Of a stretch of DNA of 33,689 bases, positions 3,001-21,197 are shown in pieces. Position 1 is the first letter of the stretch. Each line of letters opens with the position of its first letter. The notes beneath the pieces were generated by a model. That model was not told where the DNA came from and ran no database searches. It saw only the letters and a program-made list of their open reading frames with translations. Position numbers and translations under genes: made by a program. This stretch comes from an uncultured Bacteroidales bacterium (GTDB taxonomy: Bacteria > Bacteroidota > Bacteroidia > Bacteroidales > UBA10428): the NCBI GenBank assembly GCA_964633185.1, contig CAZWFM010000001.1:1-33689 (forward strand). The letters run 5' to 3'.

Positions 3001-6000
3001 TGAATCTGATTTTTGCATAGGAACTCCGGTTTCAAACAGGCCAAACAGTAAACTTGAGAAGATCTTCGGAATGTTTGTAAATACAATTGTTCTTCGTCAA
3101 CAATTTGAGGGAATTAAAACCTTTAAAGACCTGGTCAATTTCACGAAAAGAACAGTTCTTGATGCCATTGCACATCAGGATTTACCTTTTGAGAAAATTG
3201 TAGAAAGCATACAACCTGAAAGATCTCTGATGTATAATCCAATATTTCAGATTGCATTTGCGTGGCAGAACAATGCCGGCAGTTCAATACATTTCGAGAA
3301 AGCAACCGGGGAAAGAGTTGCAATGACAGAAGGAATATCACCTTTTGATATAACGGTGTATATGTGGCAACATGGAGATATTATTGAAGCAGAAATTGAA
3401 TATAACATTAGTCTGCTTGAGAGAAATACTATTTTACAATTTAAGGAAAATTTTCTCAGACTGATTAGAAATATAACCGATAATTTTGAGGCTTCACTTG
3501 CTGAAATTTCTCTGGTTACCGACGAGAATATCAAAATATTAAAAGGTTTAAGTGGGCAGACTACTGTATATCCTCGTGATTCTTCCATTATTCAATTGTT
3601 TAAAGAACAGGTTCATTTGCGGTCTGATGAAATTGCGGTCCAGTACAAGAATAAGAATCTTTCTTATTCGGAATTGGACAAAAAGTCAGATAAGTTGGCG
3701 GCTCAATTAAGCAAGATAGGAGTTCATCCTGAAGATGCTATAGGTTTGTTTTGCACTAAGTCTTCGGATTTAATAGTTGGTATGCTGGCTATTCTGAAGG
3801 TCGGTGGAGCCTATCTTCCTTTGGATCCGGACTATCCGGTTGAAAGGATTGACTATATGATTCAGGATGCAAAATGCAGGGTAATACTAACACAGAAGCA
3901 TCTCCACAACATTCCTCTTGATTGCCCAAAAGTACTGTTAATCGATGATCCTGATATGTATAAGTCTGATGCCCCAATACCATCAGTTTCCATAGGTGCT
4001 ACTAATCTTGCTTATATCATGTATACTTCGGGAACAACGGGGAAACCCAAAGGTAGCATGATTGAACACAGAAGTGTAATTCGTTTGGTAAGAAATACCA
4101 ATTACATAGAATTAACTGAAAAGGATAATATATTGCTCACAGGGGCCATAGGATTTGATGCTACTACCTTTGAGATTTGGGGAGCACTTCTTAATGGAGG
4201 AAAACTATTTATTGTAGACAAAGAGGTAATACTTACACCTGCAAAGCTGGAGCAGGACTTGAAAGAAAATAAAATTACAACGCTTTGGCTTACGTCCTCC
4301 CTTTTTACACAGATTGCAGAAATTAATTCCGGACTATTCAAAGGTCTTCGATCACTTCTTGTCGGAGGGGATATTCTTTCCGTTGAGCACATTAAGAAAG
4401 TTCGGCATAAAGCTCCTGATCTTACAGTTATAAACGGTTATGGTCCGACTGAAAATACCACGTTTTCTACCTGCCATGTAATTGATAAAGACTATGATGG
4501 AAGTATACCAATTGGGAAACCCATTAGTAACTCAACAGCCTATATATTTGACAAGTATATGAATTACTGTCCTGTTGGCATAATTGGTGAACTTTATGTT
4601 GGAGGTGATGGTCTCTCAAGGGCATATCTTAATGATGAGGAATTGAACAAGGAAAAATTCATTGAACATCCATATATTCCGCGAGAAAGACTTTTTAAAA
4701 CAGGTGACCGGGTAAGGTGGTTGGATGATGGCACAATTGAATTTCATGGAAGAATCGATAGTCAATTGAAGATCATGGGTTTTCGGGTTGAGCCTCTGGA
4801 AATAGAAGCTGTACTGAATGATGTGGAAGGAATTATCGAATCGGTAATTAAACCTGTGGCCGTAAATAAAGGAGTCATTCAACTCTATGCTTTTCTGAAT
4901 GTCCCAAAGGATTTTTCCATGAAGGAAGAAGAACTAATCGGGATTATTAAAGAAAAACTTCCTGTTTATATGATCCCTGCAGGATTTTGCTTTATGCATG
5001 GTTTTCCAAAAAACATTAACGGGAAGATCGATAGAAATGCATTAGTAGTTGATACTTCATTCTTCGAGAAAAAAACGACTGGTTACAAAGAGAGTTTATC
5101 AGCATCGGAAAAGGAGATCATGCCTATTTTTTCTTCTGTCCTGAAACATGATAATTTTACCAGTACGGATAATTTCTTTGATATCGGGGGTAGTTCATTG
5201 CTAGCTCTTACATTGATTTCAAAGATTGAAAAACACTTTGGATTTATAATTGCCTTTCGTGATTTTATGGCGGAATACAATACAATTAAGAAACTGGCTG
5301 AATTACTTGACGAAAATAGACTGTCTGAATCAAGAAAACAGGAAAAACAAAAGCTTGAAAAGGGTAAGTTTAACCATTTATACTGTATCCAGCCAAAAGG
5401 TGATCTGCCGCCACTTTTCAGCATTTATGGAGAACGTGCTCTATCCGGTGATAGTGACCTGGGATCTTCACGTCCCATATATGCCTTTGTATGGCCGGGT
5501 ACTGATGCAGAAGATTTTGTGATGGATTCCGTAGAAGAAGTTGCGGCAGCCTACCTGAGACAGGTAAAAGAGATTAATCCTAATGGCCCTTATTTCTTCA
5601 TTGGATTTTCGTTTGGAGGATTGGTAGCCATGCAGATGGCTTCTCAATTGCAGCATGAGGGATATTCAGTACCTTTATTGGCATTGTTAGATTGTATACA
5701 CCCAAATGAAAGTGTCAGAAAACTTCAAAAGTACAGGCATCTTGCTAAAAATCATGGTATTGGATACATGCTGTATGACAGATTATTTCGCGGTGCACCC
5801 CGATTGATCAGAAGGAAGACTGAGGAACTGCTGGTTACTGTTTTATGCCGAAGCAATAAAAAATTACCTGCCTATTTAAGAAGGCGAAAAATTCTGCTGA
5901 ATAGTATGAAAATCTATGGTAAATACAAACCCGGAATATATGATGGCACCTTGCTTTTATTTAAAGTTAAAGATAATTCCATTAAGGATGAATACCTGGG

Positions 6001-6151
6001 CTGGGGTCCTCACGCTTCAGCAATCAAAGCCATCATGCTGGAAGGTGTGCATCTGGATGCAATTGATTTACCGGAGAATAAGGAGATTGTGACAAGAGAA
6101 ATCACGAATTACCTGGTCAATGAACCCATATTGACCGATGTACGATCCTGA
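1..6151 (+). CDS. Hybrid type I PKS-NRPS megasynthase, C-terminal ~2050 aa (5' end off-window): KS(partial)-AT-ACP-C-A-PCP-TE
   Basis: ORF 98..6151. The same frame stays open back to nt 2 (KGWAINNDGNRKIGFAAPSIEGQEQVIRKAQD, ketosynthase core), so the listed Met is internal. Motifs in order: HGTATKLGDP, GHLDVVAG, GGTNAHVIVQE (KS); GHSTGEY and KAFHS (AT); FFEMGGHSLLA (carrier); HHLVFDGLS (condensation HHxxxDG); YTSGTTGKPKG, NGYGPTE, GELYVGGDGLSRAY, KTGDRVRW, GRIDSQLKIMGFRVE, NGKIDR (adenylation); FFDIGGSSLLA (PCP); GFSFGG (thioesterase GxSxG). Confidence 0.95.
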   Translation, partial: KGWAINNDGNRKIGFAAPSIEGQEQVIRKAQDMAGMHPEQISYIETHGTATKLGDPIEFQALVNTFRERTRKNQFCGIGTVKSNIGHLDVVAGAVGLIKIALSSYYKKIPPTLYCTKPNPLLDIENSPFYIADKVVEKKNDLPLTMGVSSFGVGGTNAHVIVQEYLDERQKKESGNAPQLIPLSAKSNSSLSKLEKNIVEYLNRNPENIEDAAYTLQFGRTHMPYRSYVIVEPGKKTHIDEFKKGIRNEHQPKLVFAFPGGGAQFVGMGKELYKIESVFKEEIDKCFAIYNSVTGKDLKHMIFSDKGNVKAAEQLTEIEYTQPAMFCIEYGLSKLYMHYGMHPDYLIGHSTGEYIAACLADVYDVETGLKIIIKRGELMQTMPPGNMMAVRASEKELIEFNEGLFDISAINAPKASTISFKPERAGEIITLLEKKKIDFIELNTNKAFHSSDCDPFLNEFAAFVDSFKKNTPRLPVISSYTGTFLSDEEAVSGDYWARQSRGTVRFNHGIKALTEVGEMLFFEVGPSTHLSSMLLQNDNIVDKTTIISSIGKPDDESEYMNFFKSIGNLWIKGVRPAFDKFHTVNATGIITLPAYPFEKKRYWIDVVKKYSDTCAQEDRYDLSHVEVSDEEEIIAGSDHEDLSNPLQNKLKTIWQEFLGIDNISIRDNFFEMGGHSLLALQILSRVKEIFSVEITLKAFLSDPTIQYVEGIIKGAASNIEHQINYDDLIHNSEKGHLPLYSEQKRLWITAKLDRENPAYNIPTTYRFEGQIDYELFQKSIELLFERHHIIFCVFNDIDGEPYCEIKKPANIKIQRTDISGLSGDEKAKKLTQVIADDSRQIFDLENGPLYRLMLIKTNKDEFYFHSTIHHLVFDGLSWEVLVKDLSQIYNSLLHGKEPNLDRLEIQAYDYAFWQAKHDIQKNEDELKDFWKKQLKDVSPILNFPYDRPRTSPPTGHGSKVYMQVPEEDAMKLRKFSRTENSTLFMTMLSIFSMLIQRYSGESDFCIGTPVSNRPNSKLEKIFGMFVNTIVLRQQFEGIKTFKDLVNFTKRTVLDAIAHQDLPFEKIVESIQPERSLMYNPIFQIAFAWQNNAGSSIHFEKATGERVAMTEGISPFDITVYMWQHGDIIEAEIEYNISLLERNTILQFKENFLRLIRNITDNFEASLAEISLVTDENIKILKGLSGQTTVYPRDSSIIQLFKEQVHLRSDEIAVQYKNKNLSYSELDKKSDKLAAQLSKIGVHPEDAIGLFCTKSSDLIVGMLAILKVGGAYLPLDPDYPVERIDYMIQDAKCRVILTQKHLHNIPLDCPKVLLIDDPDMYKSDAPIPSVSIGATNLAYIMYTSGTTGKPKGSMIEHRSVIRLVRNTNYIELTEKDNILLTGAIGFDATTFEIWGALLNGGKLFIVDKEVILTPAKLEQDLKENKITTLWLTSSLFTQIAEINSGLFKGLRSLLVGGDILSVEHIKKVRHKAPDLTVINGYGPTENTTFSTCHVIDKDYDGSIPIGKPISNSTAYIFDKYMNYCPVGIIGELYVGGDGLSRAYLNDEELNKEKFIEHPYIPRERLFKTGDRVRWLDDGTIEFHGRIDSQLKIMGFRVEPLEIEAVLNDVEGIIESVIKPVAVNKGVIQLYAFLNVPKDFSMKEEELIGIIKEKLPVYMIPAGFCFMHGFPKNINGKIDRNALVVDTSFFEKKTTGYKESLSASEKEIMPIFSSVLKHDNFTSTDNFFDIGGSSLLALTLISKIEKHFGFIIAFRDFMAEYNTIKKLAELLDENRLSESRKQEKQKLEKGKFNHLYCIQPKGDLPPLFSIYGERALSGDSDLGSSRPIYAFVWPGTDAEDFVMDSVEEVAAAYLRQVKEINPNGPYFFIGFSFGGLVAMQMASQLQHEGYSVPLLALLDCIHPNESVRKLQKYRHLAKNHGIGYMLYDRLFRGAPRLIRRKTEELLVTVLCRSNKKLPAYLRRRKILLNSMKIYGKYKPGIYDGTLLLFKVKDNSIKDEYLGWGPHASAIKAIMLEGVHLDAIDLPENKEIVTREITNYLVNEPILTDVRS
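2..496 (+). other. Ketosynthase domain, C-terminal part
   Basis: INNDG..APS..GQ, ETHGTATKLGDPIE, KSNIGHLDVVAG, GGTNAHVIVQE. The N-terminal half with the active-site Cys lies outside the window. Confidence 0.9.
758..1810 (+). other. Acyltransferase domain plus post-AT linker, malonyl-type by motif
   Basis: FAFPGGGAQFVGMGKELY, EYTQPAMFCIEYGL, GHSTGEY (active Ser), KAFHS (xAFH rather than YASH), ends at YPFEKKRYWI. Confidence 0.85.
1934..2140 (+). other. Acyl carrier protein domain (phosphopantetheine Ser at about 2027-2029)
   Basis: LQNKLKTIWQEFLGIDNISIRDNFFEMGGHSLLALQILSRV. Only about 40 acidic linker residues separate it from the AT linker, which leaves no room for KR, DH or ER. Confidence 0.85.
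2210..3517 (+). other. NRPS condensation domain
   Basis: LPLYSEQKRLW, HHLVFDGLSW (HHxxxDG), MFVNTIVLR, the expected length of about 435 aa. Confidence 0.85.
3584..5047 (+). other. NRPS adenylation domain with a Val-like specificity code
   Basis: A3 LAYIMYTSGTTGKPKG, A4 FDATTFEIW, A5 NGYGPTENTTFST, A7 GELYVGGDGLSRAYL, A8 GRIDSQLKIMGFRVEPLEIE, A10 PKNINGKIDR. Hand alignment to the GrsA-PheA numbering gives the ten residues D-A-F-W-L-G-G-T-F-K. Confidence 0.8.
5099..5311 (+). other. Peptidyl carrier protein domain (Ser at about 5192-5194)
   Basis: EKEIMPIFSSVLKHDNFTSTDNFFDIGGSSLLALTLISKIE. Confidence 0.85.
5375..6127 (+). other. Type I thioesterase domain (alpha/beta hydrolase)
   Basis: PPLFSIYG, GFSFGGLVAMQMA (GxSxG nucleophile elbow), candidate catalytic His in EGVHLDAI near the C-terminus. 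It is the last domain before the stop codon. Confidence 0.8.
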
Positions 6152-6333: not shown

Positions 6334-8319
6334 TTACTCTTTTACGAAAATATAACTATTTGTTGATGAGCCTGTACTTGCTGTAAGAAAATAGATCCCT
6401 GTGAATAAATTTGAGACATTAAAATACATCATATCGTTTTCCAAGACCGGATGGGAGAGAGCCTCTATAATTTCTCCCTGAAGATTGGTTATTCTAAAGT
6501 TAATTTTTCCCTGATCCGTATTCGTATCCCTGACAAATACATACCACAGGTCTCCGCTAGTCGGATTAGGAAAGATGAGGCCGGTATTAATTTCAGCTGA
6601 GTCCAATTCGGTTATATTGAGCAATGTAATTTCATAATCGCCATAGATGCCTGATCCATCATTCGCTGTTGCTCTTGCGGTGACCTTTCCGGGGTTCTCT
6701 GACGTAATCAAACCGGTAGAATTAATTGTTGCTTCTCCGGTATCTTCGATAACAGACCAGGATACCGTTTTATTTGTTGCATTTGCTGGCAGAACAGTTG
6801 CTGTTAATTGCAATGATTCACTTGGTCTGCTTATCATTGCGGAGCCACCCGAGGCTGAAATAATAATATCGGTTGCACTGACAGGAATATATGCATATGC
6901 ACCAATGTCATAATGGCCAGGAATTCTGGGATTGCCTTCAATATCGGTTTCTACTTCCGGAATGGTTGCACCTGCGTTCACAGCACCTGAGTTAAACGCC
7001 AGGTGATAATCATGATTTTCATAGTCAACGAAATCAGCCGGACTGGCAATGTACACAGTATTATCCACAACACCATTCAATTCAGGAGGCATTGAATCAA
7101 CAAAGATTGTATTTCGCATATCGAAATTATCTTCATTGAAACTCACCCTGGCATCAAAATAGGAAGGTGCCCGTTCATGAATCCCCGGCCACATTATGGT
7201 ATCTATACTATTATCAAAGGTACAATTCCATATTTTTATGTTCTCAATATCATCTTCAGGCCATAATGAACACCAATACGTATCGTATGTGACACAGTTA
7301 CACATAGTAACAAGAGGTGGTCCGGACATTGTTCCTGTCTGGGCTATGATATCAGGACCCATCAATCTGAAACCTATAGCGCTTTCATACACTATCGTGT
7401 TCTTAATGGTAGCATCTACTGACATATTAATAGCTACAGCCGGCCAGTCATATTTACCATTAAACCCGTGCAATACATTGTTGTCAATATATATATATGC
7501 CTTCCAGTCCGGATTCGGACTGTTTGCAATCTCGGCACTATCAGGTGTCTTTGTATCAATACCATTTTCACTCCAGTAGGTATTTGCCGGAAGGGTATTA
7601 ACCTCTTTGTCTACTAATCCGGACCATAAATGGTTATTTGTAATAAACAGAGAATCCCATGTCGGGAAAGTTAAGGAGCTTCCCGATTGTATACAGTCTC
7701 CGCTATTATGATGAATGTTGCAGTTGTTGATAATCATGTGGTTTCCACTTCTAAACATAATACCATGAGCATCTTTCCTTTCGCCTTCAGCATCATGATG
7801 TACACAATAGTAAATTTCACAATTATCAACAATGGTATGATCAGATTCAGTCACGGTCAGCCCATCCGTATGAGATTTGTACCACTTACAATTATAGAAT
7901 GTTAAGTGATCTGAATTTTGCCTCATGTCAATCAATGGATAAGCCCCATTTAAAAAGTCTCCGTCCATATCAAAGCCTTCCCATCGATAATATTCGACAT
8001 CAGCCGTTCGAATAGCATTTGTTTCAGTAGTTATCTTAAAGACAGGTCTGTTACTAAGATCATGAGCTTTAACAGTTATCCATTCTGAAGCATTCCCGGA
8101 ATGTACAGGAAGAATATAAGTAGTCAGATAATATGTTCCGGGCATAATCCTTAAAGTATCCCCGGGGGTTAATGCGTCCATTGCATCCGGCCAGGAATTA
8201 AATGGTTCGGATTGACTACCGTCACCATTACTTCCGCCATTATGAATATACCAGTTTTTTTGTCCAAATGACCAGAATACTGCGTTACACAATAGCAATA
8301 TTAAAACTGTTTTTTTCAT
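6334..8319 (-). CDS. Secreted right-handed beta-helix (DUF1565/pectate-lyase-fold) protein, paralogue 1: signal peptide, beta-helix, one Big_2 module, T9SS C-terminal sorting domain
   Basis: Signal peptide MKKTVLILLLCNAVFWSFG|Q. N-terminal cap WYIHNGGSNGDGS..PFNSW...A...L.PGDTLRIMPGTY. PbH1-like turns (NCNIHHNSGDCIQSG, ITNNHLWSG, IDNNVLHGF, IKNTIVYES). C-terminal cap DYHLAFNSGAVNAG...DIEGNPR...YDIGAY. Ig module SLQLTATVLPANATNKTVSWSV..ATINSTGLITS..VTARATANDGSG. Tail IFPNPTSGDLW...TGIYFLTASTG..YIFVKE. Confidence 0.85.
   Translation of the reverse strand: MKKTVLILLLCNAVFWSFGQKNWYIHNGGSNGDGSQSEPFNSWPDAMDALTPGDTLRIMPGTYYLTTYILPVHSGNASEWITVKAHDLSNRPVFKITTETNAIRTADVEYYRWEGFDMDGDFLNGAYPLIDMRQNSDHLTFYNCKWYKSHTDGLTVTESDHTIVDNCEIYYCVHHDAEGERKDAHGIMFRSGNHMIINNCNIHHNSGDCIQSGSSLTFPTWDSLFITNNHLWSGLVDKEVNTLPANTYWSENGIDTKTPDSAEIANSPNPDWKAYIYIDNNVLHGFNGKYDWPAVAINMSVDATIKNTIVYESAIGFRLMGPDIIAQTGTMSGPPLVTMCNCVTYDTYWCSLWPEDDIENIKIWNCTFDNSIDTIMWPGIHERAPSYFDARVSFNEDNFDMRNTIFVDSMPPELNGVVDNTVYIASPADFVDYENHDYHLAFNSGAVNAGATIPEVETDIEGNPRIPGHYDIGAYAYIPVSATDIIISASGGSAMISRPSESLQLTATVLPANATNKTVSWSVIEDTGEATINSTGLITSENPGKVTARATANDGSGIYGDYEITLLNITELDSAEINTGLIFPNPTSGDLWYVFVRDTNTDQGKINFRITNLQGEIIEALSHPVLENDMMYFNVSNLFTGIYFLTASTGSSTNSYIFVKE
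6337..6588 (-). other. T9SS (Por) C-terminal sorting domain of paralogue 1
   Basis: FPNPTSGDLWYV...INFRITNLQGEII...GIYFLTASTGSSTNSYIFVKE. The pattern is typical of type-A CTDs. Confidence 0.75.
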
Positions 8320-8453
8320 GATGCAAGGATTTTGGTAGTATGATAATCATTACAGTTTATATACATAGGCATTATGAAATAGTCAGAGTTGATTAGCTGA
8401 ACTGTTTACCCTGACTTTAATTCAATTCAAATGATTTTTGCTTACTGTACAAC

Positions 8454-8461
8454 AAAATTAT
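8454..8461 (-). promoter_or_regulatory. Candidate Bacteroidota -7 box (TAATTTTG, consensus TAnnTTTG) upstream of paralogue 1
   Basis: Exact 8-mer match 135 nt upstream of the ATG at 8319 and downstream of the strong terminator at 8603-8642. No clear -33 element was seen. Confidence 0.3.
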
Positions 8462-8602
8462 TCTTATTTAACATGAATTGCACTTGACTGAATACCTAAA
8501 ATGTCTCGTTAAAAATTAACTTTGAATTGATATGGTAGTGTTTTCATTATTTTACCTGATCATTCTTAGAAAATTATATTTACGAATTATACAATAAAAT
8601 CA

Positions 8603-8642
8603 AAGAAAAAACTGGAATACAATAAAGAATATTGTATTCCAG
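8603..8642 (-). terminator. Rho-independent terminator after paralogue 2
   Basis: Perfect 13-bp stem CTGGAATACAATA / TATTGTATTCCAG with a 5-nt loop (8612-8642). On the minus-strand transcript it is followed by UUUUUUCUU. It lies 70 nt past the stop at 8712. Confidence 0.8.
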
Positions 8643-8711
8643 TTCCATTTCTTGTTTTTGTATATCTAAATTTTGCTTAATCTTACCATTCTTGTATGTT
8701 TGCATTTCATC

Positions 8712-11513
8712 TTAGTAAATAGCAATTTTAGCAATTTTTCTGTTCATTTCTCCTCTTATTTCAAGAAAATACAGTCCCGGTTGAAAACCTGATACTTCGT
8801 ATTCAAAGTAATCTGAGTGAAGTTCTTGTTTAAAGAGCAATACACCATTTGTATTATACAAAGAAATATATTGATAATATTCATGTGGATTTTCAAACCG
8901 AACACTGAGATAAGGATATGAATAATTGATCATAATACCAGAATCCCAATTGTCAGAACCCGGATCAGTCAGTGAATTTGGATTTAATACTGTCAACATA
9001 AGATAGTCATACTCCGCAGTACCATCGTTGGCCATAACAACAGCTGTAACAGTTCCGACAGTTTCACCGGTTACAAGACCATTGACATCAACCGAAGCTT
9101 CTCCTGAATGTTCCTTTATTGACCAGGTGACAGATTGATCTGTTGCATTGGCAGGATAAATTTCTGCCTGGAGCTGCAGGGTTTGTCCAACTGAAACTTC
9201 AGGTTCCAATCCTTCTGCAACAGATAAATAGATGCTCTCAATTGAAACGACTTCATCATGGATTGTAATCATGAAATCATCATAAATGCCGGATCCGTCA
9301 TTGGCCTTTGCCCTTGCAGTTACAATTCCTGCAGAAATTGCAGTAACCAGTCCTGAAGAGTTAATTGCAGCTTCCCCGCTTTCGTTCATGATTAACCATG
9401 TTACACTCTGATTGGTAGCATTTACCGGTTGGACGTTAGCAATCAATTGTAATGTTTCGCCGGGAGAATCTATGGTAGATGATCCATTGGCTGATGTAAC
9501 ATTGATACTGGCAACCGCGAATTGTGGAGTTAAAATGTTAATGGAATAGTTTCCATAAATACCGGATCCATCATTTGCTGTTGCCCTTGCAATTACCGTT
9601 CCGGAAGAAATAGCAGTGACAAGTCCGGATGGATTAATGGTAGCTTCTCCGCTATCATTTAGAATTGACCAGGTAACAGTTTTATTTGTTGCATTTGATG
9701 GAAGTACTGATGCTGTTAGTTGCAATGACTCGCCTGGCAGGTCAATTGATGTAACACCACCTGGAGCTGTAATAATTATTTCTGATACCAAAACCGGTGA
9801 GTTTTGCAAAGTGATATCAAAATGATCGTATATACCTGACCCATCGTTCGCTGTTGCTCTTGCAGTAACCATTCCGGGGGCAACTGATGTAACCAGACCT
9901 GAAGTGTTGATTGTAGCTTCTCCGCTACCATTGATAACTGACCAGGTGACTGTTTTAAGGGTGGCATTTGTTGGTAACACAGACGCTGTTAATTGTAAGG
10001 TCTCACCTGGTCTTTCTATGGTTGCAGAACCATTCTGAGAAGTAATATTTATATCGGTAACATATACGGGAGGACCAGAAAAATCGGCTTCATAGGCACC
10101 GATGTCATAATGGTCAGGAATCCTGGGATTGCCTTCAATATCTGTTTCAACTTCAGGAATATTAACACCTGTGTTCACAGCTCCTGAGTTAAATGCCAGA
10201 TGATAATCATGATTTTCATAATCTGCAAAATCTGCAGGACCGGCAATGTATACATTGTTATCCACAAGACCATTCAATTCAGGAGGCATTGAATCTACGA
10301 AAATGCAATTTCGCATATCAAAGTTATCTCCAATATTTGTTCTGGCTTCAAAATAAGAAGGTGCTCGTTCGTGAATTCCAGGCCACCACAAGGTATCTAT
10401 ACTGTTATCAAAAGTGCAGTTCCAAATTTTCACATCATCCAAATCATCTTCAACCCATATTGAAGACCAATACGTATCGTATGTCATACAGTTCCACATG
10501 GTAACCAGAGGTGGTCCGGACATTGTTCCGGTCTGTGCGATAATATCAGCTCCCATCAATCTGAAACCTATAGCGCTTTCATATACTATTGTGTTCTTTA
10601 TAGTGGCATTGACTGACATATTAATGGCTACAGCCGGCCAGTCATGTTTGCCGTTAAATCCATGCAATACATTGTTGTCTATGTAAATATACGCCTTCCA
10701 GTCTGGGTTTGGACTGTTTGCAATCTCGTTAGCATCGGGAGTTTTTGTGTCAATACCATTTTCACTCCAGAAGGTATTTGCCGGAAGAGTATTAACCTCT
10801 GTGTCTAACATTCCGGACCATAAATGATTATTTGTAATAAACAAAGAATCCCATGTTGGGAAAGTTAAAGAACTTCCTGATTGTATACAATCTCCTGTAT
10901 TGTGGTGAATATTACAATTGTTAATAATCATATGATTACCGCTCCTGAACATGATACCATGAGCATCTCTTCTAATTCCTTCAGCTTCATGATTAACGCA
11001 GTAATAGACTTCACAACTGTCAATGACAGTATGATCCGATTCCGTTACCGTTAAACCATCTGTATGAGATTCATACCATTTACAATTGTAGAAAGTCCAA
11101 TAATCTGAACCAATTCTCAATTGTATTAAAGGATTTGCCCCATTGTTAAAATCACCATCCATATCAATTCCTTCCCATGTATAATGCGTGGCACTACTTG
11201 CAGCTCTGATTATATTGGTACCTGTCGATTTCAAAACAGGCCTATCGTTCAAATCATGAGCCTTAATAGTTATTCGTTCTGAATTGTTGCCGGAATTCGT
11301 GGGATTGATATACGTTGTAAGATTGTAAGTGCCAGGCATTACCCTGAGTGTATCTCCTGCACTTAATGCGTTCATAGCGCCTGACCAGGAATTAAACGGA
11401 TTGCTAAAACTTCCATCACCGTTACTTCCTCCATTGTGGATATACCAAGTGTTTTGTCCAAACGCCCAAGTTGTTGTGATCAATAAAATTGAAAATAGTC
11501 CTGTACACTTCAT
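8712..11513 (-). CDS. Secreted right-handed beta-helix protein, paralogue 2: signal peptide, beta-helix, four Big_2 modules, divergent T9SS-type C-terminal domain
   Basis: Signal peptide ...TTTWAFG|Q. The first ~475 aa align with paralogues 1 and 3 and are near-identical to paralogue 1 over residues ~183-340. Four Ig-like repeats follow, then a tail YPYLSVRFENP..ISLYNTNGVLLF..QPGLYFLEIRGE..KIAKIAIY. Confidence 0.85.
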   Translation of the reverse strand: MKCTGLFSILLITTTWAFGQNTWYIHNGGSNGDGSFSNPFNSWSGAMNALSAGDTLRVMPGTYNLTTYINPTNSGNNSERITIKAHDLNDRPVLKSTGTNIIRAASSATHYTWEGIDMDGDFNNGANPLIQLRIGSDYWTFYNCKWYESHTDGLTVTESDHTVIDSCEVYYCVNHEAEGIRRDAHGIMFRSGNHMIINNCNIHHNTGDCIQSGSSLTFPTWDSLFITNNHLWSGMLDTEVNTLPANTFWSENGIDTKTPDANEIANSPNPDWKAYIYIDNNVLHGFNGKHDWPAVAINMSVNATIKNTIVYESAIGFRLMGADIIAQTGTMSGPPLVTMWNCMTYDTYWSSIWVEDDLDDVKIWNCTFDNSIDTLWWPGIHERAPSYFEARTNIGDNFDMRNCIFVDSMPPELNGLVDNNVYIAGPADFADYENHDYHLAFNSGAVNTGVNIPEVETDIEGNPRIPDHYDIGAYEADFSGPPVYVTDINITSQNGSATIERPGETLQLTASVLPTNATLKTVTWSVINGSGEATINTSGLVTSVAPGMVTARATANDGSGIYDHFDITLQNSPVLVSEIIITAPGGVTSIDLPGESLQLTASVLPSNATNKTVTWSILNDSGEATINPSGLVTAISSGTVIARATANDGSGIYGNYSINILTPQFAVASINVTSANGSSTIDSPGETLQLIANVQPVNATNQSVTWLIMNESGEAAINSSGLVTAISAGIVTARAKANDGSGIYDDFMITIHDEVVSIESIYLSVAEGLEPEVSVGQTLQLQAEIYPANATDQSVTWSIKEHSGEASVDVNGLVTGETVGTVTAVVMANDGTAEYDYLMLTVLNPNSLTDPGSDNWDSGIMINYSYPYLSVRFENPHEYYQYISLYNTNGVLLFKQELHSDYFEYEVSGFQPGLYFLEIRGEMNRKIAKIAIY
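8715..8942 (-). other. T9SS-like C-terminal sorting domain of paralogue 2 (lacks the PNP motif)
   Basis: Beta-sandwich-like pattern: ISLYNTNGVLLFKQEL, GLYFLEIRG, terminal KIAKIAIY. Confidence 0.55.
8982..10064 (-). repeat. Four tandem in-frame Big_2-type Ig-like repeats (88-92 codons each, about 270 nt period)
   Basis: A repeated core appears four times: G(E/Q)(T/S)LQL(T/I/Q)A...P.NAT...V(T/S)W(S/L)(V/I)...SGEA..(I/V)...GLVT......V(T/I)A(R/V)....NDG(S/T). Residues ~484-844 of the 933-aa protein. Confidence 0.85.
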
Positions 11514-11657
11514 TATTAGTTCTTTAGTAGTTTTGTAATAAATTGATTTTCAATTAACTCGCCCAAGTTAATCTTTGCGGTATGTATAGCATATCGCTTG
11601 ATTTAAATACGTAAATAATTCAAAAATGTTGCTTTTTTTTGATTAATGTGATTCGGG

Positions 11658-13100
11658 TCAACGGTCACTTTGTATTTCAAATGCACCAATGTCATATTCA
11701 CCTGCTATTCTGGGATTGCAGTCAAAATCATCTGTAACTTCAGGAATAGTAACACCACTGTTAACAGCTCCTGAGGTTTCAACCAAATGATAATCATGAT
11801 TTTTATAATCTACAAAATCAGCCGGACTGGCTATGTATATATTGTTATCCACAACACCGACCAATTCAGGGGGCATTGAATTGACAAAAATTGTATTTCG
11901 CATATCGAAATTCTGTTTGTTGAAACTCACTCTGTCATCAAAATACGAAGGAGCCCGAACATGAATTCCCGGCCACCATAAAGTATCTATGCTATTATCA
12001 AAAGTACAATTCCAAATTCTTAATGAATCAACATTCGTTTGAGGCCATAAAGCTGACCAATACGTATCGTATGAAATACAATTGATCATTTTCACGATCG
12101 GACCTTTCGACATTGTTCCAATTTGTGCAGCGATACTTGGCCCCATCAAACGATATGCTATTGCACTTTCATATACTACAGTATTCTTAATAGTAGCATC
12201 CACAGACATGTTAATAGCTATTGCAGGCCAGTCATAATCACCATTAAATCCATGCAATACATTGTTGTCAATATAGACATAAGCCCTCCATCCTGGATCT
12301 TTGGATCGAGCAATAGTAGTACTATCTGGTGTCTTTGTATCAATACCGTTTTCACCCCAGAATGTATGTGCTGGCATGGAATTTACCACAGTGTCTACCA
12401 TTCCGGACCATAAATGGTTGTTTGTGATAATCAGTGAGTCCCATGTCGGAAAAGCTAACGAAGTTCCGGATTGAATGCAATCTCCTGAATTATGGTGAAT
12501 ATTGCAATTGTTGATAATTAGCTTATTACCGCTCCTGAACATGATCCCATGAGCATCTTTCCTCTCACCTTTTGCTTTATGATGCACACAATAATATATT
12601 TCACAACTATCAATCTTTACATGTTCGGTTCCTTCGATAACCAATCCGTCGGTATGTGATTCATACCATTTACAATTGTAAAAAGTAAAATGGTGTGTAC
12701 CTGCCCGTAAGTTAATTAATGGATATACTCCATTCAAAAAGTCTCCATCTATATCGATACCTTCCCATCTATAATATCCGACATTGAGTGTTCGAATAGC
12801 GTTTGTTACAGTAGTCGTTTTCAGTACAGGTCTGTCACTGAGATCATGAGCTTTTACAGTTATCCATTTTGAAGCATTCCCTGAATTTACCGGGAATATA
12901 TACGTTGTGAGATTATAAATGCCAGGCATTACCCTTAGTGTATCCCCTGCACTTAATGCATTCATTGCACTTTGCCAGGAATTAAACGGATCGTCAAAAC
13001 TGCCATCACCATTATTTCCACTATTATGAATATACCTTGTATTCTGGCTACATACCGTTATAAAATGCATAAGCATTAATGAAAAAAATAATTTTTTCAT
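11658..13100 (-). CDS. Secreted right-handed beta-helix protein, paralogue 3: signal peptide (possibly lipoprotein) plus the beta-helix domain only
   Basis: MKKLFFSLMLMHFITVCS|Q, then the same cap, turn and cap motifs as paralogues 1 and 2. It ends 5 residues after DIGAFE, with no Ig module and no sorting domain. Confidence 0.85.
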   Translation of the reverse strand: MKKLFFSLMLMHFITVCSQNTRYIHNSGNNGDGSFDDPFNSWQSAMNALSAGDTLRVMPGIYNLTTYIFPVNSGNASKWITVKAHDLSDRPVLKTTTVTNAIRTLNVGYYRWEGIDIDGDFLNGVYPLINLRAGTHHFTFYNCKWYESHTDGLVIEGTEHVKIDSCEIYYCVHHKAKGERKDAHGIMFRSGNKLIINNCNIHHNSGDCIQSGTSLAFPTWDSLIITNNHLWSGMVDTVVNSMPAHTFWGENGIDTKTPDSTTIARSKDPGWRAYVYIDNNVLHGFNGDYDWPAIAINMSVDATIKNTVVYESAIAYRLMGPSIAAQIGTMSKGPIVKMINCISYDTYWSALWPQTNVDSLRIWNCTFDNSIDTLWWPGIHVRAPSYFDDRVSFNKQNFDMRNTIFVNSMPPELVGVVDNNIYIASPADFVDYKNHDYHLVETSGAVNSGVTIPEVTDDFDCNPRIAGEYDIGAFEIQSDR

Positions 13101-13364
13101 AGAAAAATTCTCGTAAACTCAGTGTAAGATAGTTAATAATAGATAAGTAAAACAAGGGGATATCAGAATATTAAAAAAATCTCAATGACAATTATTAAAA
13201 CAATTTTCAGAGGTAAATAATGAATAAGTGTATAACTTCACAGACTGAGATTTTGTTCTCTTTATAATCATGTCTTACTCCTGAAAATCAACCAATCTAC
13301 AATTAAAGCTTGTCACGCATTTTATAAACTTACTGAATTCAAGAAGATTCAACTTTAAAGTACT

Positions 13365-14669
13365 CTACCAGCAGATACCTTCGTAATTCATAAGTGTCTC
13401 ATCTTTTGTGACTTTAACCAGATCCACAAATATTTTTTCGGAATATTTGGCGATAAGGTTTTCAAATTCATCTTCTCTATAAGTAATTACCAATACTTCA
13501 TTCTCCTCAACAACTTTCTTCAGGTTATCAGTTATTAAAGTTGATAAATGTGGGAGATGTTCGTCGATGTATGCTTTATTTGTTCCGGTAATATTAGAAA
13601 GATTTACATTTTTATCATATATCGAGACATTGTATCCCTTGCCGATAAGTTTTTCAACAAGATCAACTGCAGGACTATATCTGAGGTCATCGGTTCCTTT
13701 CTTGAAACTCAATCCTAATACACCAATGTTCCGCTTTTTGTATTTCGTTACAAGATGGAAAGCAATTTTTTTCTGGTATTCATTCGATTCGTGTATAGAA
13801 CTTAACAAGGGTGTTTTTAAGTAAGCATCATGAGCAATTGTACTTAGTCCTTGCAGATCCTTCGGCAAACAAGATCCACCATAAGCAAATCCCGGTTTAA
13901 AATAAGCTGTGGAAATATTCAATTTATTATCTGTACCGAATACCCTCATCACTTCATGAGAGTCGATCTTCAATGATTTACAAATGTTTCCAACCTCATT
14001 GGCAAAAGTAATTTTCAGGGCATGAAATGAATTGTTTATATACTTGATTATTTCTGCAACCTCGATAGTTGTTTCCAAAACAGATGAATTGATAAACGAA
14101 TAGAGCTCGTTCATAATTTTTAAAGCTTTCGGACTATCACTTCCCAGAACAGTAATGGCGGGATTATAATAGTCGGCCACAGCTGAACCTTCACGCAAGA
14201 ATTCAGGATTTGAAACCACGGCAAAATCTTCATTGCGTTTTTTTCCACTTTTCTCCTGGATAATTTCGGCGACTTTCTTATTTGTTCCAGGTATCACTGT
14301 GCTGCGTATTACAACAACATGAAAACTGTTCTTTTTTTTGATACCCTGACTAATATCTGCAGCAATTTGAATTATACTGTTCAAATTCAAGTGACCAGTT
14401 GAAGATGAGGGGGTTCCGGCACAAACAATTGAAATATCAGTGTCAAGTACAGCCTGGCATGAATCTGTAGTGGCCTTTATTAAACCGTTTTTTGAGCCTT
14501 TTGAGATCAATTCGTCAATTCCGGCTTCAATGATTGTTGGTTTGCCTTTATTAATGAGGTTGACTTTGTGTTTATTAATGTCAACACCAATTATTTTATG
14601 AGAGTTAGCTGCAAGACAACCAATACTAACACAACCTACATAACCCAATCCGAAGATAGAAATATTCAT
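13365..14669 (-). CDS. GDP-mannose 6-dehydrogenase (AlgD-like nucleotide-sugar dehydrogenase)
   Basis: MNISIFGLGYVGCVSIGCLA..H.IIGVDIN..KV.LIN.GK..I.E.G closely follows my recollection of the P. aeruginosa AlgD N-terminus. Also NPEFLREGSAV, VAEIIKY, GFAYGGSCLPKD, LGLSFKKGTDDLR.SP, and the AlgD-type C-terminus YEGICW. I place the start at the ATG at 14669 (Rossmann GxGxxG near the N-terminus, 16 nt after the upstream stop) rather than at 14720. Confidence 0.85.
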   Translation of the reverse strand: MNISIFGLGYVGCVSIGCLAANSHKIIGVDINKHKVNLINKGKPTIIEAGIDELISKGSKNGLIKATTDSCQAVLDTDISIVCAGTPSSSTGHLNLNSIIQIAADISQGIKKKNSFHVVVIRSTVIPGTNKKVAEIIQEKSGKKRNEDFAVVSNPEFLREGSAVADYYNPAITVLGSDSPKALKIMNELYSFINSSVLETTIEVAEIIKYINNSFHALKITFANEVGNICKSLKIDSHEVMRVFGTDNKLNISTAYFKPGFAYGGSCLPKDLQGLSTIAHDAYLKTPLLSSIHESNEYQKKIAFHLVTKYKKRNIGVLGLSFKKGTDDLRYSPAVDLVEKLIGKGYNVSIYDKNVNLSNITGTNKAYIDEHLPHLSTLITDNLKKVVEENEVLVITYREDEFENLIAKYSEKIFVDLVKVTKDETLMNYEGICW

Positions 14670-14685
14670 AACTAACAATTTTATT

Positions 14686-15708
14686 TTAGATTTGCTTTGT
14701 ATACATGTTAATTTTATCAATCAGGAAATTTGTAACATCTTCCCAGTCCTTTTCAAGCGTTGTCCTGAATTCATCCTGTTCCATGAATTGTTTGCCATTG
14801 ATCAAAATTTCCCTGCAAAAATCAATCAATTTTTCAGGTAATACTTTTGTGAGCATACCTTTCTCAATTAAGACATGATTGGCAGGCATTTCTCTTTCAC
14901 CACAGTATATACTGTGAACACCCAGCATACTCCCTTCACGGGCCATACTATCACCACTGGAGATGACAAGCTTGCTGTAGTACATAATAGAATGAATATC
15001 GGAAACCGGTTCTTCCAGTATGATCCAGTCAGTTGGATAAAGTGACTTATTTTTTTTCTTTTCAAGCGATAACACGATTTTTTGCGGGAACTCGCTAAAT
15101 TTTTCTGCTTGCCGCAAAATGATGTCTTTGTCCTGTGAAAGATAATTGCTTGTGCTGGTATCAACCTCTCTGATAAATACATAATTTTTTGACTTTAAGG
15201 TATAAGTTTGTAAAACTTCAGGATCGGGCTTAAAGTATTTTGGAGCCAGGTATGCCCATTCTTTAAGAGCATTAATTTTTTTGGTTTTTGGGATATCATT
15301 ACTAAAACATGGAATGTAAAGCTCGTTCGTTGAGAATTTATCAATATCAAAGGCTATTTTACGCGGATCATCAATAAATGCTATATTCGGAACCCTGTTC
15401 AATTTAGCAGCCAGATTTGCCTGGTAATGTGCTGTAATCACAAAATCATATTTGTTTCGGTGAATTAGTCTGTAAAGAGCATATACACGAGGGATCATTA
15501 TTCTGAACAACATTGAAAACCGACCTTTATTGTGTTTATAATCACCAAATACAATCAAATTGTACCCGGGACATTCCTTTTGAATTATTTTTACTATACG
15601 ACCTCGATTGATACAGCAAAGATCAACTTCATCTTTGTCAAGACTCAGTATTGTATTCTTGAAAAAGTTGAACTGTGGAATATGATAGAGGTCTATTAGA
15701 ATTTTCAT
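14686..15708 (-). CDS. DUF354-family protein (GT-B/2-epimerase-like fold, function unassigned)
   Basis: About 340 aa. The N-terminus MKILIDLYHIPQFNFFKNTILSL resembles the MKIWIDI.H.P.V.FFK..I..L signature I recall for DUF354. No TM segment or signal peptide. Confidence 0.5.
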   Translation of the reverse strand: MKILIDLYHIPQFNFFKNTILSLDKDEVDLCCINRGRIVKIIQKECPGYNLIVFGDYKHNKGRFSMLFRIMIPRVYALYRLIHRNKYDFVITAHYQANLAAKLNRVPNIAFIDDPRKIAFDIDKFSTNELYIPCFSNDIPKTKKINALKEWAYLAPKYFKPDPEVLQTYTLKSKNYVFIREVDTSTSNYLSQDKDIILRQAEKFSEFPQKIVLSLEKKKNKSLYPTDWIILEEPVSDIHSIMYYSKLVISSGDSMAREGSMLGVHSIYCGEREMPANHVLIEKGMLTKVLPEKLIDFCREILINGKQFMEQDEFRTTLEKDWEDVTNFLIDKINMYTKQI

Positions 15709-15732
15709 ATCTGATATGGATTTTTTTAGGTA

Positions 15733-17676
15733 TTAGGCAATGATCAGTATTTCAGTGTTAATAACAATTGGTTTGGATGATTCAAATTTAGAATAAATCA
15801 CAGTCGTATCCTGAATTGAGTAGAATCCTGATGAATAATATCCCAGAATCGGATTCCTCTGACCTTTTATCAATTCAATGCGAAGTTTCTTATCGGTTTT
15901 TATTTCGGTAGTGCGGGCAGGGGAACATTTTAATAAGAATACATTATTATTTTTTCTTTCGATTGTAACTTCAGGAGAAAGATGATGACATAACTCAAAC
16001 TGATGAAGTTTACCATCCGATATATCCAGGGTATCTTGTATTAAAAATCTGTTTTCAGTTTTATTGAATACAATACTGCGCGTATGTATGACCCCATTTT
16101 TCACATAACCATCATGGCTTGCCCTGATCTCTTCTGTTAATTCATTCTGGTTACAACGAAGGACTTTCGATCGATAATGGTCATTCCAGAGAGATGGACC
16201 TTTGTATAATGCCTGATCATGGTTATCAACTCTGATAGTATTATGGGCCAGTGTCCCTTTAAAATATTTTCGAAAGTCCTGCTGAGTATGTATGGTATAT
16301 GTTCCGCAATCAACAATTATTGGAATGCCATCGACATGGAGAACATACGATAATGCATCGGCATGACCATGAGCTGCAATCGAAAGATATCCAAGCGGAG
16401 CCGCATTGAAATGCAATAGTATTTCCTTATATGCTGAAGATTTTCTAAAAAAGAAATGGCCTTCATCCGGATAAAATTTTGATTTGACATTTTCAGGGAA
16501 AAAGGTATCCACATCTTTAAATTCTGTTTGATATGTATTCCCGAAAAATAGTTGATTTCGGCAATCGTATCCGGAACATTTACTTTTAAAATCCGGTTCA
16601 CGAAACAAAATTGATCCGGTGGTAAGCAAGGATCTGAAATTATACAAATGATCATCATTTTCGAAAAACAAAGCATGTCCGTCATCTGCGTCACCATATC
16701 GTATTAAATTTCCTCTACTATCAATAAGTTGAAAGATATAGTTAAACATTTCATGTAAACGCTCATTGTATTGATTTGGAAAACTGTTTTCTGTTCGTCC
16801 TGCATAAAACCAGGAAAGGAGAAATAGATCCGTAATATATTGAATATAGCCGGAAGTTTCTTCACGGTTTATTCCATTTTTGGAATGTTGTTTGATTATT
16901 TCTTTTTCTAATTCGGATTTGCTGAATTTTTTCCACTTCCCGGATTCCTTAAAATTCCAGAAGCTGGAAGCAATAAATAATCCGGCTAATTCTGCAATAA
17001 GATGATTGTTGGCAGATGAAAAACGTGAGAGTGAAGAGCGAATTCGTTTGCAGTGCGCATATATAACAGGGACCCATTTTTGAGTTATAAAATGGTCAAG
17101 GTTTTTCGATTTTTTTGTTATTGATTGAATATCAAGGATATCCCAGGTAATAGCCCAGTTAATGAGTCTTAATCCCAGTTCGATATTGCTATACCAGTTA
17201 ATTCCGATCATATAGGGATTGTCGTCTATCCATGATAATATCAGGTCCTTTATCAGGTTAAGATATTTTTCATCGCCTGATACCCGATACTTGAGTGCAA
17301 TCTGTGGCAGGAATTGCATCCTGTTCAGTTCCCATACATGCTTTGCGCTCATATTATTAAATCCGCGGGTATTGATTTTTTTTGAAAAAACCTTTGGGAA
17401 TTCAAGTTTGGAATAAGGATCGAAGTGCCAGTTGTATTTGTTCTTTAATGGTATTTGCTGATCAAATAGTTTGATACTGCTTATATCTTGATCATAATTG
17501 ATGTGATCCGTATTGAATATTGTATTGTAACCTGCATAGTAACAATTTTTGAAATCCTTGCCTTTCTTAGATTCAGCCAGCTTATTCACTAAGGCAATTC
17601 TCAGTCTGTAAATAAATTCCTGTGAAGACATTGATCCGATACGCGCCAGATACCATTTTATGCTTATATTCATCAT
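15733..17676 (-). CDS. Heparinase II/III-like protein, predicted cytoplasmic
   Basis: 647 aa. NWYSNIELGLRLINW and SSANNHLIAELAGL fit an N-terminal alpha/alpha toroid. AAHGHADALSYVLHVDGIPIIVDCGTYTI and GTLAHNTIRVDN are typical of the Hepar_II_III C-terminal domain. The N-terminus MMNISIKWYLARIGSMSSQEF has no hydrophobic signal. Confidence 0.75.
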   Translation of the reverse strand: MMNISIKWYLARIGSMSSQEFIYRLRIALVNKLAESKKGKDFKNCYYAGYNTIFNTDHINYDQDISSIKLFDQQIPLKNKYNWHFDPYSKLEFPKVFSKKINTRGFNNMSAKHVWELNRMQFLPQIALKYRVSGDEKYLNLIKDLILSWIDDNPYMIGINWYSNIELGLRLINWAITWDILDIQSITKKSKNLDHFITQKWVPVIYAHCKRIRSSLSRFSSANNHLIAELAGLFIASSFWNFKESGKWKKFSKSELEKEIIKQHSKNGINREETSGYIQYITDLFLLSWFYAGRTENSFPNQYNERLHEMFNYIFQLIDSRGNLIRYGDADDGHALFFENDDHLYNFRSLLTTGSILFREPDFKSKCSGYDCRNQLFFGNTYQTEFKDVDTFFPENVKSKFYPDEGHFFFRKSSAYKEILLHFNAAPLGYLSIAAHGHADALSYVLHVDGIPIIVDCGTYTIHTQQDFRKYFKGTLAHNTIRVDNHDQALYKGPSLWNDHYRSKVLRCNQNELTEEIRASHDGYVKNGVIHTRSIVFNKTENRFLIQDTLDISDGKLHQFELCHHLSPEVTIERKNNNVFLLKCSPARTTEIKTDKKLRIELIKGQRNPILGYYSSGFYSIQDTTVIYSKFESSKPIVINTEILIIA

Positions 17677-18121
17677 TCAGACGTTAACTTTGAGCAGATA
17701 CAATTACAATATTAAATCTTACATCTAACATATCTGTTAATGGGTTATTGATTTAAGGTGAAATACTTACTTTTAATTATGGTTGAAAATTCATTCAGGC
17801 AGACAGACAGAGTTAGTACTGTAAAATTATATCCATGAGTTCTTTATAACAACTTGTTTGTCAAATTGATCCTTATGTTTATCAACTTTATTAACACATC
17901 CGGTATATTCGTATGGTCATGCCTTCCAAATCAGCTCCCGTAATGAATATTCCGATGAAAAGAGAAACAGTTAAATCTGGTTGCCACTAAGGATATCTAC
18001 ATTCTTTTTTTTGGCAGTTTAGTCACTATTATTCAGAACGAATAAAAATCAGCTTAGAATTTTTTTATCACAGGCAAAAACTTCGCTCCTTCGGATAAAT
18101 CAAAAAAAGTACTTTGATACA

Positions 18122-19141: not shown

Positions 19142-19179
19142 GATCTTCTTTGATAAATGGATATACCGGATTTTTTATG

Positions 19180-21033: not shown

Positions 21034-21197
21034 ACCTATTTATTTTCGCACTTTCAAATTAGTAATAAATAATAAAACATACGGTATTTGATTGAGTAGA
21101 CTTTTTTAGCCGTTTTGACAGGCGTTTTTCTGTTCCAACTTTATTATATTTTGTTTTTATCAAAATCTTATTGTTTTATGTTTTCGCTGAGTAAAGA

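Follow-up and report, generated by a model that had tools for sequence, protein, structure and literature searches.

Three secreted β-helix paralogues beside a Wzx/Wzy-type polysaccharide locus of an uncultured Bacteroidales bacterium: candidate depolymerases remotely related to family PL9

Polysaccharide loci equipped with a β-helix depolymerase of their own are already known, the described examples being WceF, VexL and the enzymes of the alginate system. VexL is a periplasmic Vi-antigen lyase encoded in capsule loci of Burkholderiales (PMC6003464), and the loss of WceF in Pantoea stewartii lengthens the chains of stewartan (PMC7949094). In the enzymes of polysaccharide lyase (PL) family PL9, the Ca site is situated on coils 5 and 6 and the Lys base on coil 7 (PMC6627557). 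The present study deals with three consecutive genes of an uncultured Bacteroidales bacterium, designated P1, P2 and P3 (paralogues 1, 2 and 3), which lie next to an exopolysaccharide (EPS) locus in a stretch of 33,689 nt (assembly GCA_964633185.1, contig CAZWFM010000001.1, positions 1–33,689 of the forward strand), referred to below as the window. An earlier interpretation of these letters, here called the sequence-only reading, had proposed that the three genes encode extracellular enzymes modifying the polymer of that locus, and this central idea is plausible in the light of the comparisons described below.

The explanation preferred here, although held tentatively and with somewhat less than even confidence, is that all three proteins depolymerise the uronic-acid polymer of the adjacent locus, most likely by lyase action. 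P1–P3 would thus be catalytically competent secreted polysaccharide-cleaving enzymes of a small family with a remote kinship to the pectate and rhamnogalacturonan lyases of PL9. Their chemistry would most likely be a β-elimination at a uronic-acid residue, with the carboxylate neutralised by a metal or a basic site drawn from D182, D207, Q210, E250 and D254, and the C5 proton removed by K256 or R317, possibly together with H184. The lineage would have recruited these enzymes to a Wzx/Wzy locus whose polymer contains mannuronate and is possibly amidated; P3, like VexL or AlgL, would work on it in the periplasm while it is being exported, and P1 and P2 would leave via the secretion system of type IX (T9SS) and, like WceF, trim or release the polymer on the cell surface or farther out. 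The lyase chemistry, the own-locus polymer as substrate and the three locations are what we infer from sequence comparison, and the graded distances of the three copies from the cell are likewise suggested by their tails. What is new here, relative to the systems named above, is the uncharacterised enzyme family, the T9SS tails and the conserved triplication in three targeting architectures.

Architecture and age of the three paralogues

The three genes are consecutive open reading frames (ORFs) on the minus strand and share a β-helix core, comprising about residues 1–476 in all of them, with pairwise identities of 69–80% in a three-way alignment; three co-oriented paralogues with a common signal peptide and core had been described correctly by the sequence-only reading. 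P3 (480 aa; positions 11658–13100, minus strand) consists of a signal peptide of about 18 aa and the core, ends five residues past the helix and has no C-terminal tail. P2 (933 aa; 8712–11513, minus strand) carries, behind its signal peptide and core (residues 1–476; 10086–11513, from Pfam and the alignment), four tandem immunoglobulin (Ig)-like Big_2 modules (residues 483–848; 8970–10067; four stretches, 142 bits in Pfam) and a divergent domain like the T9SS type A sorting domain (residues 849–933 plus the stop codon; 8712–8969). P1 (661 aa; 6334–8319, minus strand), with its signal peptide and core delimited in the same way (residues 1–476; 6892–8319), has a single Big_2 module (residues 479–572; 6604–6885; 42.5 bits) and a canonical T9SS type A sorting domain (residues 573–661 plus the stop codon; 6334–6603). 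The Big_2 modules of P2 have a period of 91 aa and are 40–62% identical to each other and 41–67% identical to the single module of P1.

With regard to the sorting domain, P1 exceeds both curated cutoffs (PF18962, i.e. Por_Secre_tail, 35.2 bits at a cutoff of 27; TIGR04183, 26.5 bits at a cutoff of 23), P2 stays below both (24.2 and 16.8 bits, respectively), and P3 has no such domain. The tail of P2 lacks the PNP motif and retains ..YNxxG.., GLYFL and a C-terminal K-I-A-K-I-A-I-Y. The graded tails are thus in agreement between Pfam and the sequence-only reading. The label DUF1565 used in that reading finds no support, since PF07602 gave no match to the window proteins, for P3 even at E ≤ 10; the core is matched instead by the generic Pfam model Beta_helix at 30–38 bits (38.2 bits for P3). 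The model NF041518 (choice-of-anchor Q; cutoff 25 bits) covers residues 437–477, scoring 27.5 bits for P2, exactly the cutoff (25.0 bits) for P1 and, below it, 21.4 bits for P3.

By inspection, the N-termini resemble Sec signals cleaved by signal peptidase I (..FG|Q, ..FG|Q and ..CS|Q), and P3, being without a tail, is predicted to be periplasmic. A lipoprotein nature of P3, conceivable from Cys17, was considered and rejected as unlikely because its orthologue in a sister genome has no such Cys; every copy, moreover, ends the signal with ..G/S|Q.

This sister genome is an independent Bacteroidales assembly (GCA_016935615.1, contig JAFGQO010000188), a metagenome-assembled genome (MAG) in which the same operon is followed by the same triple of 480, 933 and 661 aa and by the same polyketide synthase/non-ribosomal peptide synthetase (PKS/NRPS) gene, the synteny spanning from Wzx to the dehydrogenase. 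The orthologous cores of the two MAGs are 95% (P1), 92% (P2) and 82% (P3, of the same length) identical and hence more alike than the paralogues (65–80%), so that the triplication is older than the split of the two genomes. The number of synonymous substitutions per site (dS) between the paralogous copies amounts to 1.2–1.4 which, together with the triple in the independent assembly, rules out an assembly artefact, a possibility that the sequence-only reading had raised. Between the two genomes, the ratio of non-synonymous to synonymous substitutions (dN/dS) is 0.09, 0.12 and 0.15 for the whole genes of P1, P2 and P3, respectively; it equals 0.059 (P1) and 0.066 (P2) in the cores versus 0.17–0.19 in the tails and 0.05–0.24 in the genes of the operon. 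The triple therefore consists of old paralogues under purifying selection. The possibility that the tail-less P3 is a pseudogene or a decaying copy was discarded as well, in view of its dN/dS, the full set of signature residues and the equal length of the sister orthologue.

By neighbour joining, P1 and P2 come out as sisters, and P3 groups with single-copy T9SS-tailed genes of 580 aa from other genomes; P3 has thus probably lost its tail. As to the internal structure of the cores, the identity between P1 and P2 rises from 74% in the N-terminal half to 84% in the C-terminal half, and the single-copy gene of two of those genomes (loci L004 and L006) resembles P3 in its N-terminal half and P2 in its C-terminal half. 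These patterns hint at mosaicism among the paralogues, possibly by recombination or gene conversion.

Fold, remote homology and putative active site

The AlphaFold2 (AF2) model of P3, computed from an alignment of 55 sequences, is a right-handed all-β helix of 12–13 rungs with a mean predicted local distance difference test (pLDDT) score of 91.4 and a predicted template modelling (pTM) score of 0.91, whereas the single-sequence run gave a pLDDT of 31 only. Together with the Pfam matches to Beta_helix, the model bears out the right-handed β-helix fold that had been expected of these secreted proteins.

A phmmer search of the PDB with P3 alone returned nothing but spurious matches to actinohivin. 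The profile of the family finds the PL9 enzyme Pel9A (1RU4; E = 3.6e-36, 128 bits), the PL6 alginate lyase 7DMK (E = 1.3e-22, 83.5 bits) and the PL9 rhamnogalacturonan lyase 5OLQ (E = 7e-22, 81 bits); the matches to glycoside hydrolase (GH) families GH136 and GH120 and to AlgE4 are weaker and cover only parts of the query, and the GH28 enzyme 3JUR reaches E = 1.5e-3 (20 bits). A narrow alignment of 22 sequences was aligned to Pel9A by hhalign with a probability of 98.2% over residues 19–228, and a hidden Markov model (HMM) of the narrow family alone matches Pel9A at 8e-14. In the Foldseek comparison with the PDB, the leading matches include GH136 lacto-N-biosidases, PL9 and PL6, with template modelling (TM) scores of 0.5–0.66 and identities of 13–16%; Pel9A is found at 2.1e-11 (TM 0.50/0.58) and the PL6 structure 8BWK at 2e-8. 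On this profile evidence, the core is a remote relative of PL9 that is claimed by no curated model beyond the generic Beta_helix. The kinship with polysaccharide lyases invoked by the sequence-only reading is hence upheld, the closest solved relatives by profile being the uronate-polysaccharide lyases PL9 and PL6; its suggestion of a functionally new family holds insofar as no curated catalytic family matches, but the core is a distant PL9 relative and not an orphan.

The strict signature of the family consists of DAHG, GDCxQ, PGENAxDTK and AFRLRG. Among 150 representatives sharing at most 50% mutual identity, the charged or polar residues of these motifs are nearly invariant: D182 (133/143), H184 (142/143), D207 (141/147), Q210 (139/146), E250 (138/144), D254 (138/145), K256 (137/145) and R317 (138/146). 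In the model, the signature residues appear to occupy the same strand position on six successive rungs, as they would in a substrate groove, and the combination of carboxylates with Lys and Arg fits a metal-assisted β-elimination on a uronate. The Ca-1 ligands of Pel9A, which we take to be D209, D233, D234 and D237 on two adjacent coils (numbering of Jenkins et al. 2004; the chain index of 1RU4 plus 25 is consistent with it), can be compared with the family in the profile alignments, where D209 corresponds to the invariant D182 of DAHG and D234 to the invariant D207 of GDCIQ. According to the strand order of the AF2 model, the rung following GDCIQ carries E250, N251, D254 and K256, so that K256 would be placed like the Lys base of PL9 on the coil next to the Ca site. 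As far as PL6 is concerned, its site presumably comprises an Asn/Glu/Glu Ca site, with the Lys base and the Arg acid on successive rungs; its NGGExxR aligns with SGDCIQ, and E250..K256 and K297/R317 resemble the PL6 pattern, in a register that is only presumed.

Several observations weigh against lyase chemistry. The best Foldseek match is a GH136 glycosidase, and the curated lyase models were not passed: PF22842 gave no match (P3 at E ≤ 10, all three proteins at E ≤ 0.1), and the NCBIfam model PelN of a PL9 lyase scored 20 bits against a cutoff of 740, reflecting a faint N-terminal similarity. Even a relative 34% identical in sequence (P0008) scored just 17.7 bits with PF22842 (cutoff 25.2), the match being confined to its N-terminal 50 residues. 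Of the four Ca ligands of Pel9A, D233 and D237 have given way to G206 and Q210, respectively, and in the HMM alignments Lys273 of Pel9A pairs with R317 (AFRLxG), three rungs past D207, which implies two extra rungs here and would put the Lys base out of the PL9 register. In addition, two basic residues of the wider family, K297 and R319, have been lost in the window clade, and the conserved set of Asp, Glu, His, Lys and Arg would be compatible, too, with an inverting glycosidase for acidic glycans.

The three proteins might accordingly be glycoside hydrolases with the same depolymerising role, using D182, D207, E250 and D254 for acid/base catalysis; we consider this unlikely, and its biology overlaps that of the lyase interpretation. 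Apart from the half-conserved Ca site and the shifted Lys, it draws on the GH136 structures 7V6M (3e-12), 7V6I and 5GQC among the best Foldseek matches, with GH110, GH28 and GH87 lower, and on the hydrolase nature of WceF, which is the nearest functional precedent from a Wzy-type locus. In profile score, PL9 and PL6 (128 and 83 bits) nevertheless far surpass GH28 (20 bits), and PF00295 of GH28 did not match the window proteins; the invariant Lys and Arg and the loci with uronic-acid genes fit β-elimination. An identity with GH136, which the best Foldseek match might suggest, was not accepted because the profile matches are partial, 5GQC and 24MR covering the C-terminal rungs, and 7V6M and 6KQS mainly the N-terminal cap with the first rungs.

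The window clade (at least 54% identity) is unique in having N297 and M319, the wider family having Lys (134/145, about 92%) and Arg at these positions (AAFNxK and AFRLRG, respectively). Both substitutions are present in all three paralogues (in P3 at window positions 12210–12212 and 12144–12146), and a change in the charge of the substrate is one possibility to account for them. The same loss could be taken to indicate non-catalytic surface or matrix proteins, i.e. β-helix adhesins or EPS-binding lectins on Ig stalks, all the more so as both Big_2 stalks and anchoring by the T9SS are features typical of adhesins and as WceF aggregates in a lectin-like manner with its own polymer. Such a role is, however, scarcely credible: the charged residues are near-invariant on one face at ≤50% identity, the window copies included, the tail-less periplasmic copy has no obvious function as an adhesin, and the cores evolve under a lower dN/dS (0.06) than the tails.

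The adjacent locus and the distribution of the family

The gene preceding P3 on the same strand (13365–14720, minus strand; likely start Met at residue 18, nt 14669) encodes an AlgD-like protein with three dehydrogenase domains in Pfam. It matches the GDP-mannose 6-dehydrogenase of Pseudomonas aeruginosa (1MFZ) end to end (residues 18–451; E = 2e-128, 432 bits), whereas its best UDP-glucose dehydrogenase match (3VTF) reaches 229 bits; NCBIfam assigns it at the generic subfamily cutoff only. Because of this difference in score, the call of a GDP-mannose 6-dehydrogenase made by the sequence-only reading stands. The Wzx/Wzy-type locus itself occupies positions 14686–30038 (minus strand; from Pfam, NCBIfam and probing) and comprises, in the order along the window, a DUF354 protein (14686–15708, minus strand), a heparinase II/III-like protein (15733–17676, minus strand), a membrane-anchored protein of 339 aa (18122–19141, minus strand) with a sub-threshold match to CBM60 and, at a dN/dS of 0.24, the fastest evolution within the operon, an AsnB-type amidotransferase (19180–21033, minus strand), a Wzy-like polymerase, the flippase Wzx, Wzc, Wza and two GT4 glycosyltransferases. 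The heparinase II/III-like protein, although a conceivable extracellular lyase of the locus, has no signal peptide and is therefore ruled out in that role as cytoplasmic. The amidotransferase is 53% identical to an AsnB (11588–13426 of locus L020) that flanks another member of the family in Carboxylicivirga taeanensis, which hints at amidated uronic acids in the polymers of both loci.

The vicinity of a GDP-mannose 6-dehydrogenase gene, the β-helix, which is also the fold of epimerases, and the resemblance of the invariant D182-A-H184-G to DPH(D/E) could point to mannuronan C5-epimerases of the AlgG/AlgE type that convert mannuronate into guluronate within the exported polymer, an option offered by the sequence-only reading, and weak profile matches to AlgE4 (2e-14) and AlgG (1.5e-3) do exist. 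This is nonetheless very improbable. The hhalign probability for the AlgE4 A-module is 28%, with residues 296–436 aligned to 177–292 and the YGFDPHE site (149–155) outside; the profile match to AlgE4 falls on the non-catalytic rungs 236–354; and the family has DAHG in place of YG(F/I)DPH(D/E). The locus, furthermore, is of the Wzx/Wzy type, the window containing neither an Alg8 nor an Alg44 synthase, and relatives occur in loci for N-acetylmannosaminuronic acid (ManNAcA) and glucuronic acid, in a utilisation locus and in a phage.

A word-indexed search yielded 42 relatives, and searching 1.84 billion cluster representatives exhaustively with HMMER gave 1209 at E ≤ 1e-3, of which 254 pass E ≤ 1e-10 and 49 pass E ≤ 1e-30. 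Among the species representatives of GTDB, the family is present at 41 loci, most of them from Calditrichota, with short forms in Planctomycetota and a few members in Bacteroidota and Desulfobacterota. The short forms (P0014–P0029, from MAGs of Planctomycetota and Saccharimonadia) have 313–352 aa and consist of the central rungs only (DAHG .. AFRVRG), without the N-terminal cap and the choice-of-anchor Q end.

When probed with the proteins of the window operon, polysaccharide-synthesis neighbours were detected at 4 of the 41 loci, i.e. in the sister MAG, at L020, at L040 and, weakly, at L038. The three independent cases of a synthesis locus (window/sister MAG, L020 and L040) each have a nucleotide-sugar 6-dehydrogenase. 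At L020, the member is tail-less, has a signal peptide, ends with ..GAYE like P3 and lies between WecB/WecC (both above the NCBIfam cutoffs and giving ManNAcA) and AsnB, followed by a GT4; at L040, a member of 1678 aa precedes Wzx, a GT4 and a UDP-glucose dehydrogenase. Location within or at the end of a synthesis locus and an export signal, taken together as the marks of a self-depolymerase, are thus combined in the window genes and at L020 and L040.

The family overall, however, is not an EPS-locus family. Within two genes in either direction, the neighbours at 40 loci belong to 155 Pfam families without enrichment of any, the most frequent one, Peptidase_S13, being found in 6 of 138 proteins. 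A metagenome scan for the close clade added six loci and no new EPS-linked case. The linkage to EPS loci that the sequence-only reading had looked for is therefore largely lacking, an outcome it had itself named as speaking against its proposal. The closest relatives beyond the two MAGs (66–73% identical to P3; L003, L004, L006 and L007) are single T9SS-tailed genes, and the annotated flanks of L003, L004 and L006 contain no polysaccharide-synthesis genes, those of L003 being housekeeping genes and those of L004 encoding GH51 and GH114. The member from Mariniphaga sediminis (34% identity) directly follows SusC/SusD and is accompanied by a pair of extracytoplasmic function (ECF) sigma and anti-sigma factors and an esterase.

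In the window, the intergenic gaps ahead of P3, P2 and P1 measure 264, 144 and 392 bp, respectively. A terminator-like hairpin with a 17-bp stem followed by a T run (8608–8646, minus strand) is situated 66 nt past the stop codon of P2, and a TAATTTTG box of the Bacteroidota-type −7 consensus TAnnTTTG is present at 8453–8460, 134 nt upstream of the start of P1; it is the sole one within the three gaps, the motif occurring at chance frequency across the window. A scan for sigma-70 promoters was uninformative (38 found versus 39.5 expected). Since the hairpin separates P1 from P2 and the box lies upstream, P1 possibly forms its own transcription unit, and it is a reasonable reading that P3 and P2 continue the EPS operon with P1 as a separate unit. 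The placement of the triple at the distal end of the EPS operon is thus retained as to position and strand, but it may not apply to P1 as part of the same transcript; the gaps and the hairpin make co-transcription with the operon uncertain.

Such gaps, the hairpin, the box and the contexts of the relatives would also be expected if the enzymes served foraging, i.e. the degradation of exogenous acidic polysaccharides for nutrition or competition, from promoters of their own and with the EPS locus as an accidental neighbour; T9SS cargo in Bacteroidota is often catabolic. This alternative, the most serious of those considered, is still somewhat unlikely. The order of the genes and their tails has been conserved together with the operon in the sister MAG; the tail-less P3, with neither a terminator nor a −7 box ahead of it, is the copy nearest to the biosynthetic genes; two members from other lineages reside within synthesis loci having uronic-acid dehydrogenases; and no SusC/SusD or sugar-catabolic genes were found in the window.

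A phage connection has been observed for one member, P0047 (867 aa, 54% identical, with N297), encoded at positions 419–3022 of a metagenomic contig (L047) with a phage portal gene (phrog_146, E = 9e-63) 1.2 kb downstream at 4197–5423 and a DUF5675/phrog_1501 gene nearby; it retains a signal-peptide-like N-terminus. This copy speaks for the depolymerase interpretation, since comparable β-helix enzymes carried by phages commonly degrade capsules or EPS. Among viral models, Foldseek matches P3 best to an uncharacterised phage β-helix (1e-15, TM 0.68). Membership in a family of phage tailspikes was rejected, as PHROG gave no match to the core and two motif patterns found no relatives of the family in IMG/VR; the metagenomic contig of P0047 is phage-linked nonetheless.

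The remaining genes of the window include, converging on P1, the C-terminal part (2017 aa) of a hybrid PKS/NRPS (KS-AT ... C-A-T-TE; 98–6151, plus strand), whose counterpart in the sister MAG is 88% identical. Past the glycosyltransferases, there are a fragment-like ORF of GH5 (Cellulase; 31631–32443, plus strand) and a hybrid histidine kinase/receiver (32514–33584, minus strand).

Significance and comparison with described systems

If the proposed activity is true, the proteins would represent a new CAZy-type family of about 250 clusters (E ≤ 1e-10), mainly from Calditrichota, Bacteroidota and Planctomycetota and with no member characterised. The locus would then be a rare case of a Bacteroidota EPS locus encoding its own depolymerases, divided between the periplasm and type IX secretion, and would extend the principle known from WceF, VexL and AlgL that matrix producers encode enzymes for trimming the polymer they make. 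The pair of homologues in host and phage offers a handle on the exchange of capsule depolymerases; the practical value is modest and lies in a candidate enzyme for uronans that are amidated or of the mannuronate type. A bolder version, which we regard as doubtful, would see here a new PL family apart from PL9 with its own DAHG/GDCxQ/PGENAxDTK/AFRLRG active site, triplicated as a set for the periplasm, the surface and an Ig stalk and directed at a Wzy-dependent polymer that contains mannuronate or mannuronamide; K297 and R319 would have been lost in adaptation to this less acidic substrate, and the phage would carry the same enzyme against the same polymer.

Concerning the fold, the core shares with PL9 (Pel9A/PelL of Dickeya, 1RU4; BT4170, 5OLQ) the right-handed β-helix, the same N-terminal cap, the C-terminal end '..DY.L...S.aid.G......D..G..R......D.GA.E' and basic residues on the following rungs. 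It differs in an identity of only about 16%, in failing the PF22842 and PelN models, in the two extra rungs that, according to the HMM alignments, carry PGENAxDTK and AAFNxK, and in H184, which is invariant in the family and absent from Pel9A; pectin is, moreover, an unlikely substrate.

The alginate enzymes AlgG, AlgL and AlgE are similar in being polymer-level enzymes tied to the GDP-mannuronate pathway, AlgG and AlgE being β-helical as well; the window, however, has no Alg8/Alg44, the epimerase motif is not matched and AlgL has a different fold.

VexL, a β-helix of the pectate-lyase fold whose gene is part of a uronic-acid synthesis locus and which attacks the cell's own polymer in the periplasm, is the best analogue for the tail-less P3 and for the member from Carboxylicivirga. 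It belongs, by contrast, to an ABC-transporter system, is metal-independent and occurs as a single copy; VexL was absent among the PDB matches listed from the profile and Foldseek searches, which established no specific sequence relationship to the family.

WceF, finally, is a secreted β-helix enzyme of a Wzx/Wzy/Wzc EPS cluster that cleaves the EPS of its own cluster and resembles phage depolymerases, just as the window clade includes a 54%-identical phage-linked copy. It is a trimeric tailspike-like hydrolase with a twin-arginine translocation (Tat) signal and a single gene, whereas the window proteins, with Sec-type signals and T9SS tails, would probably be PL9-like helices in monomeric form and are present as three copies that differ in targeting.

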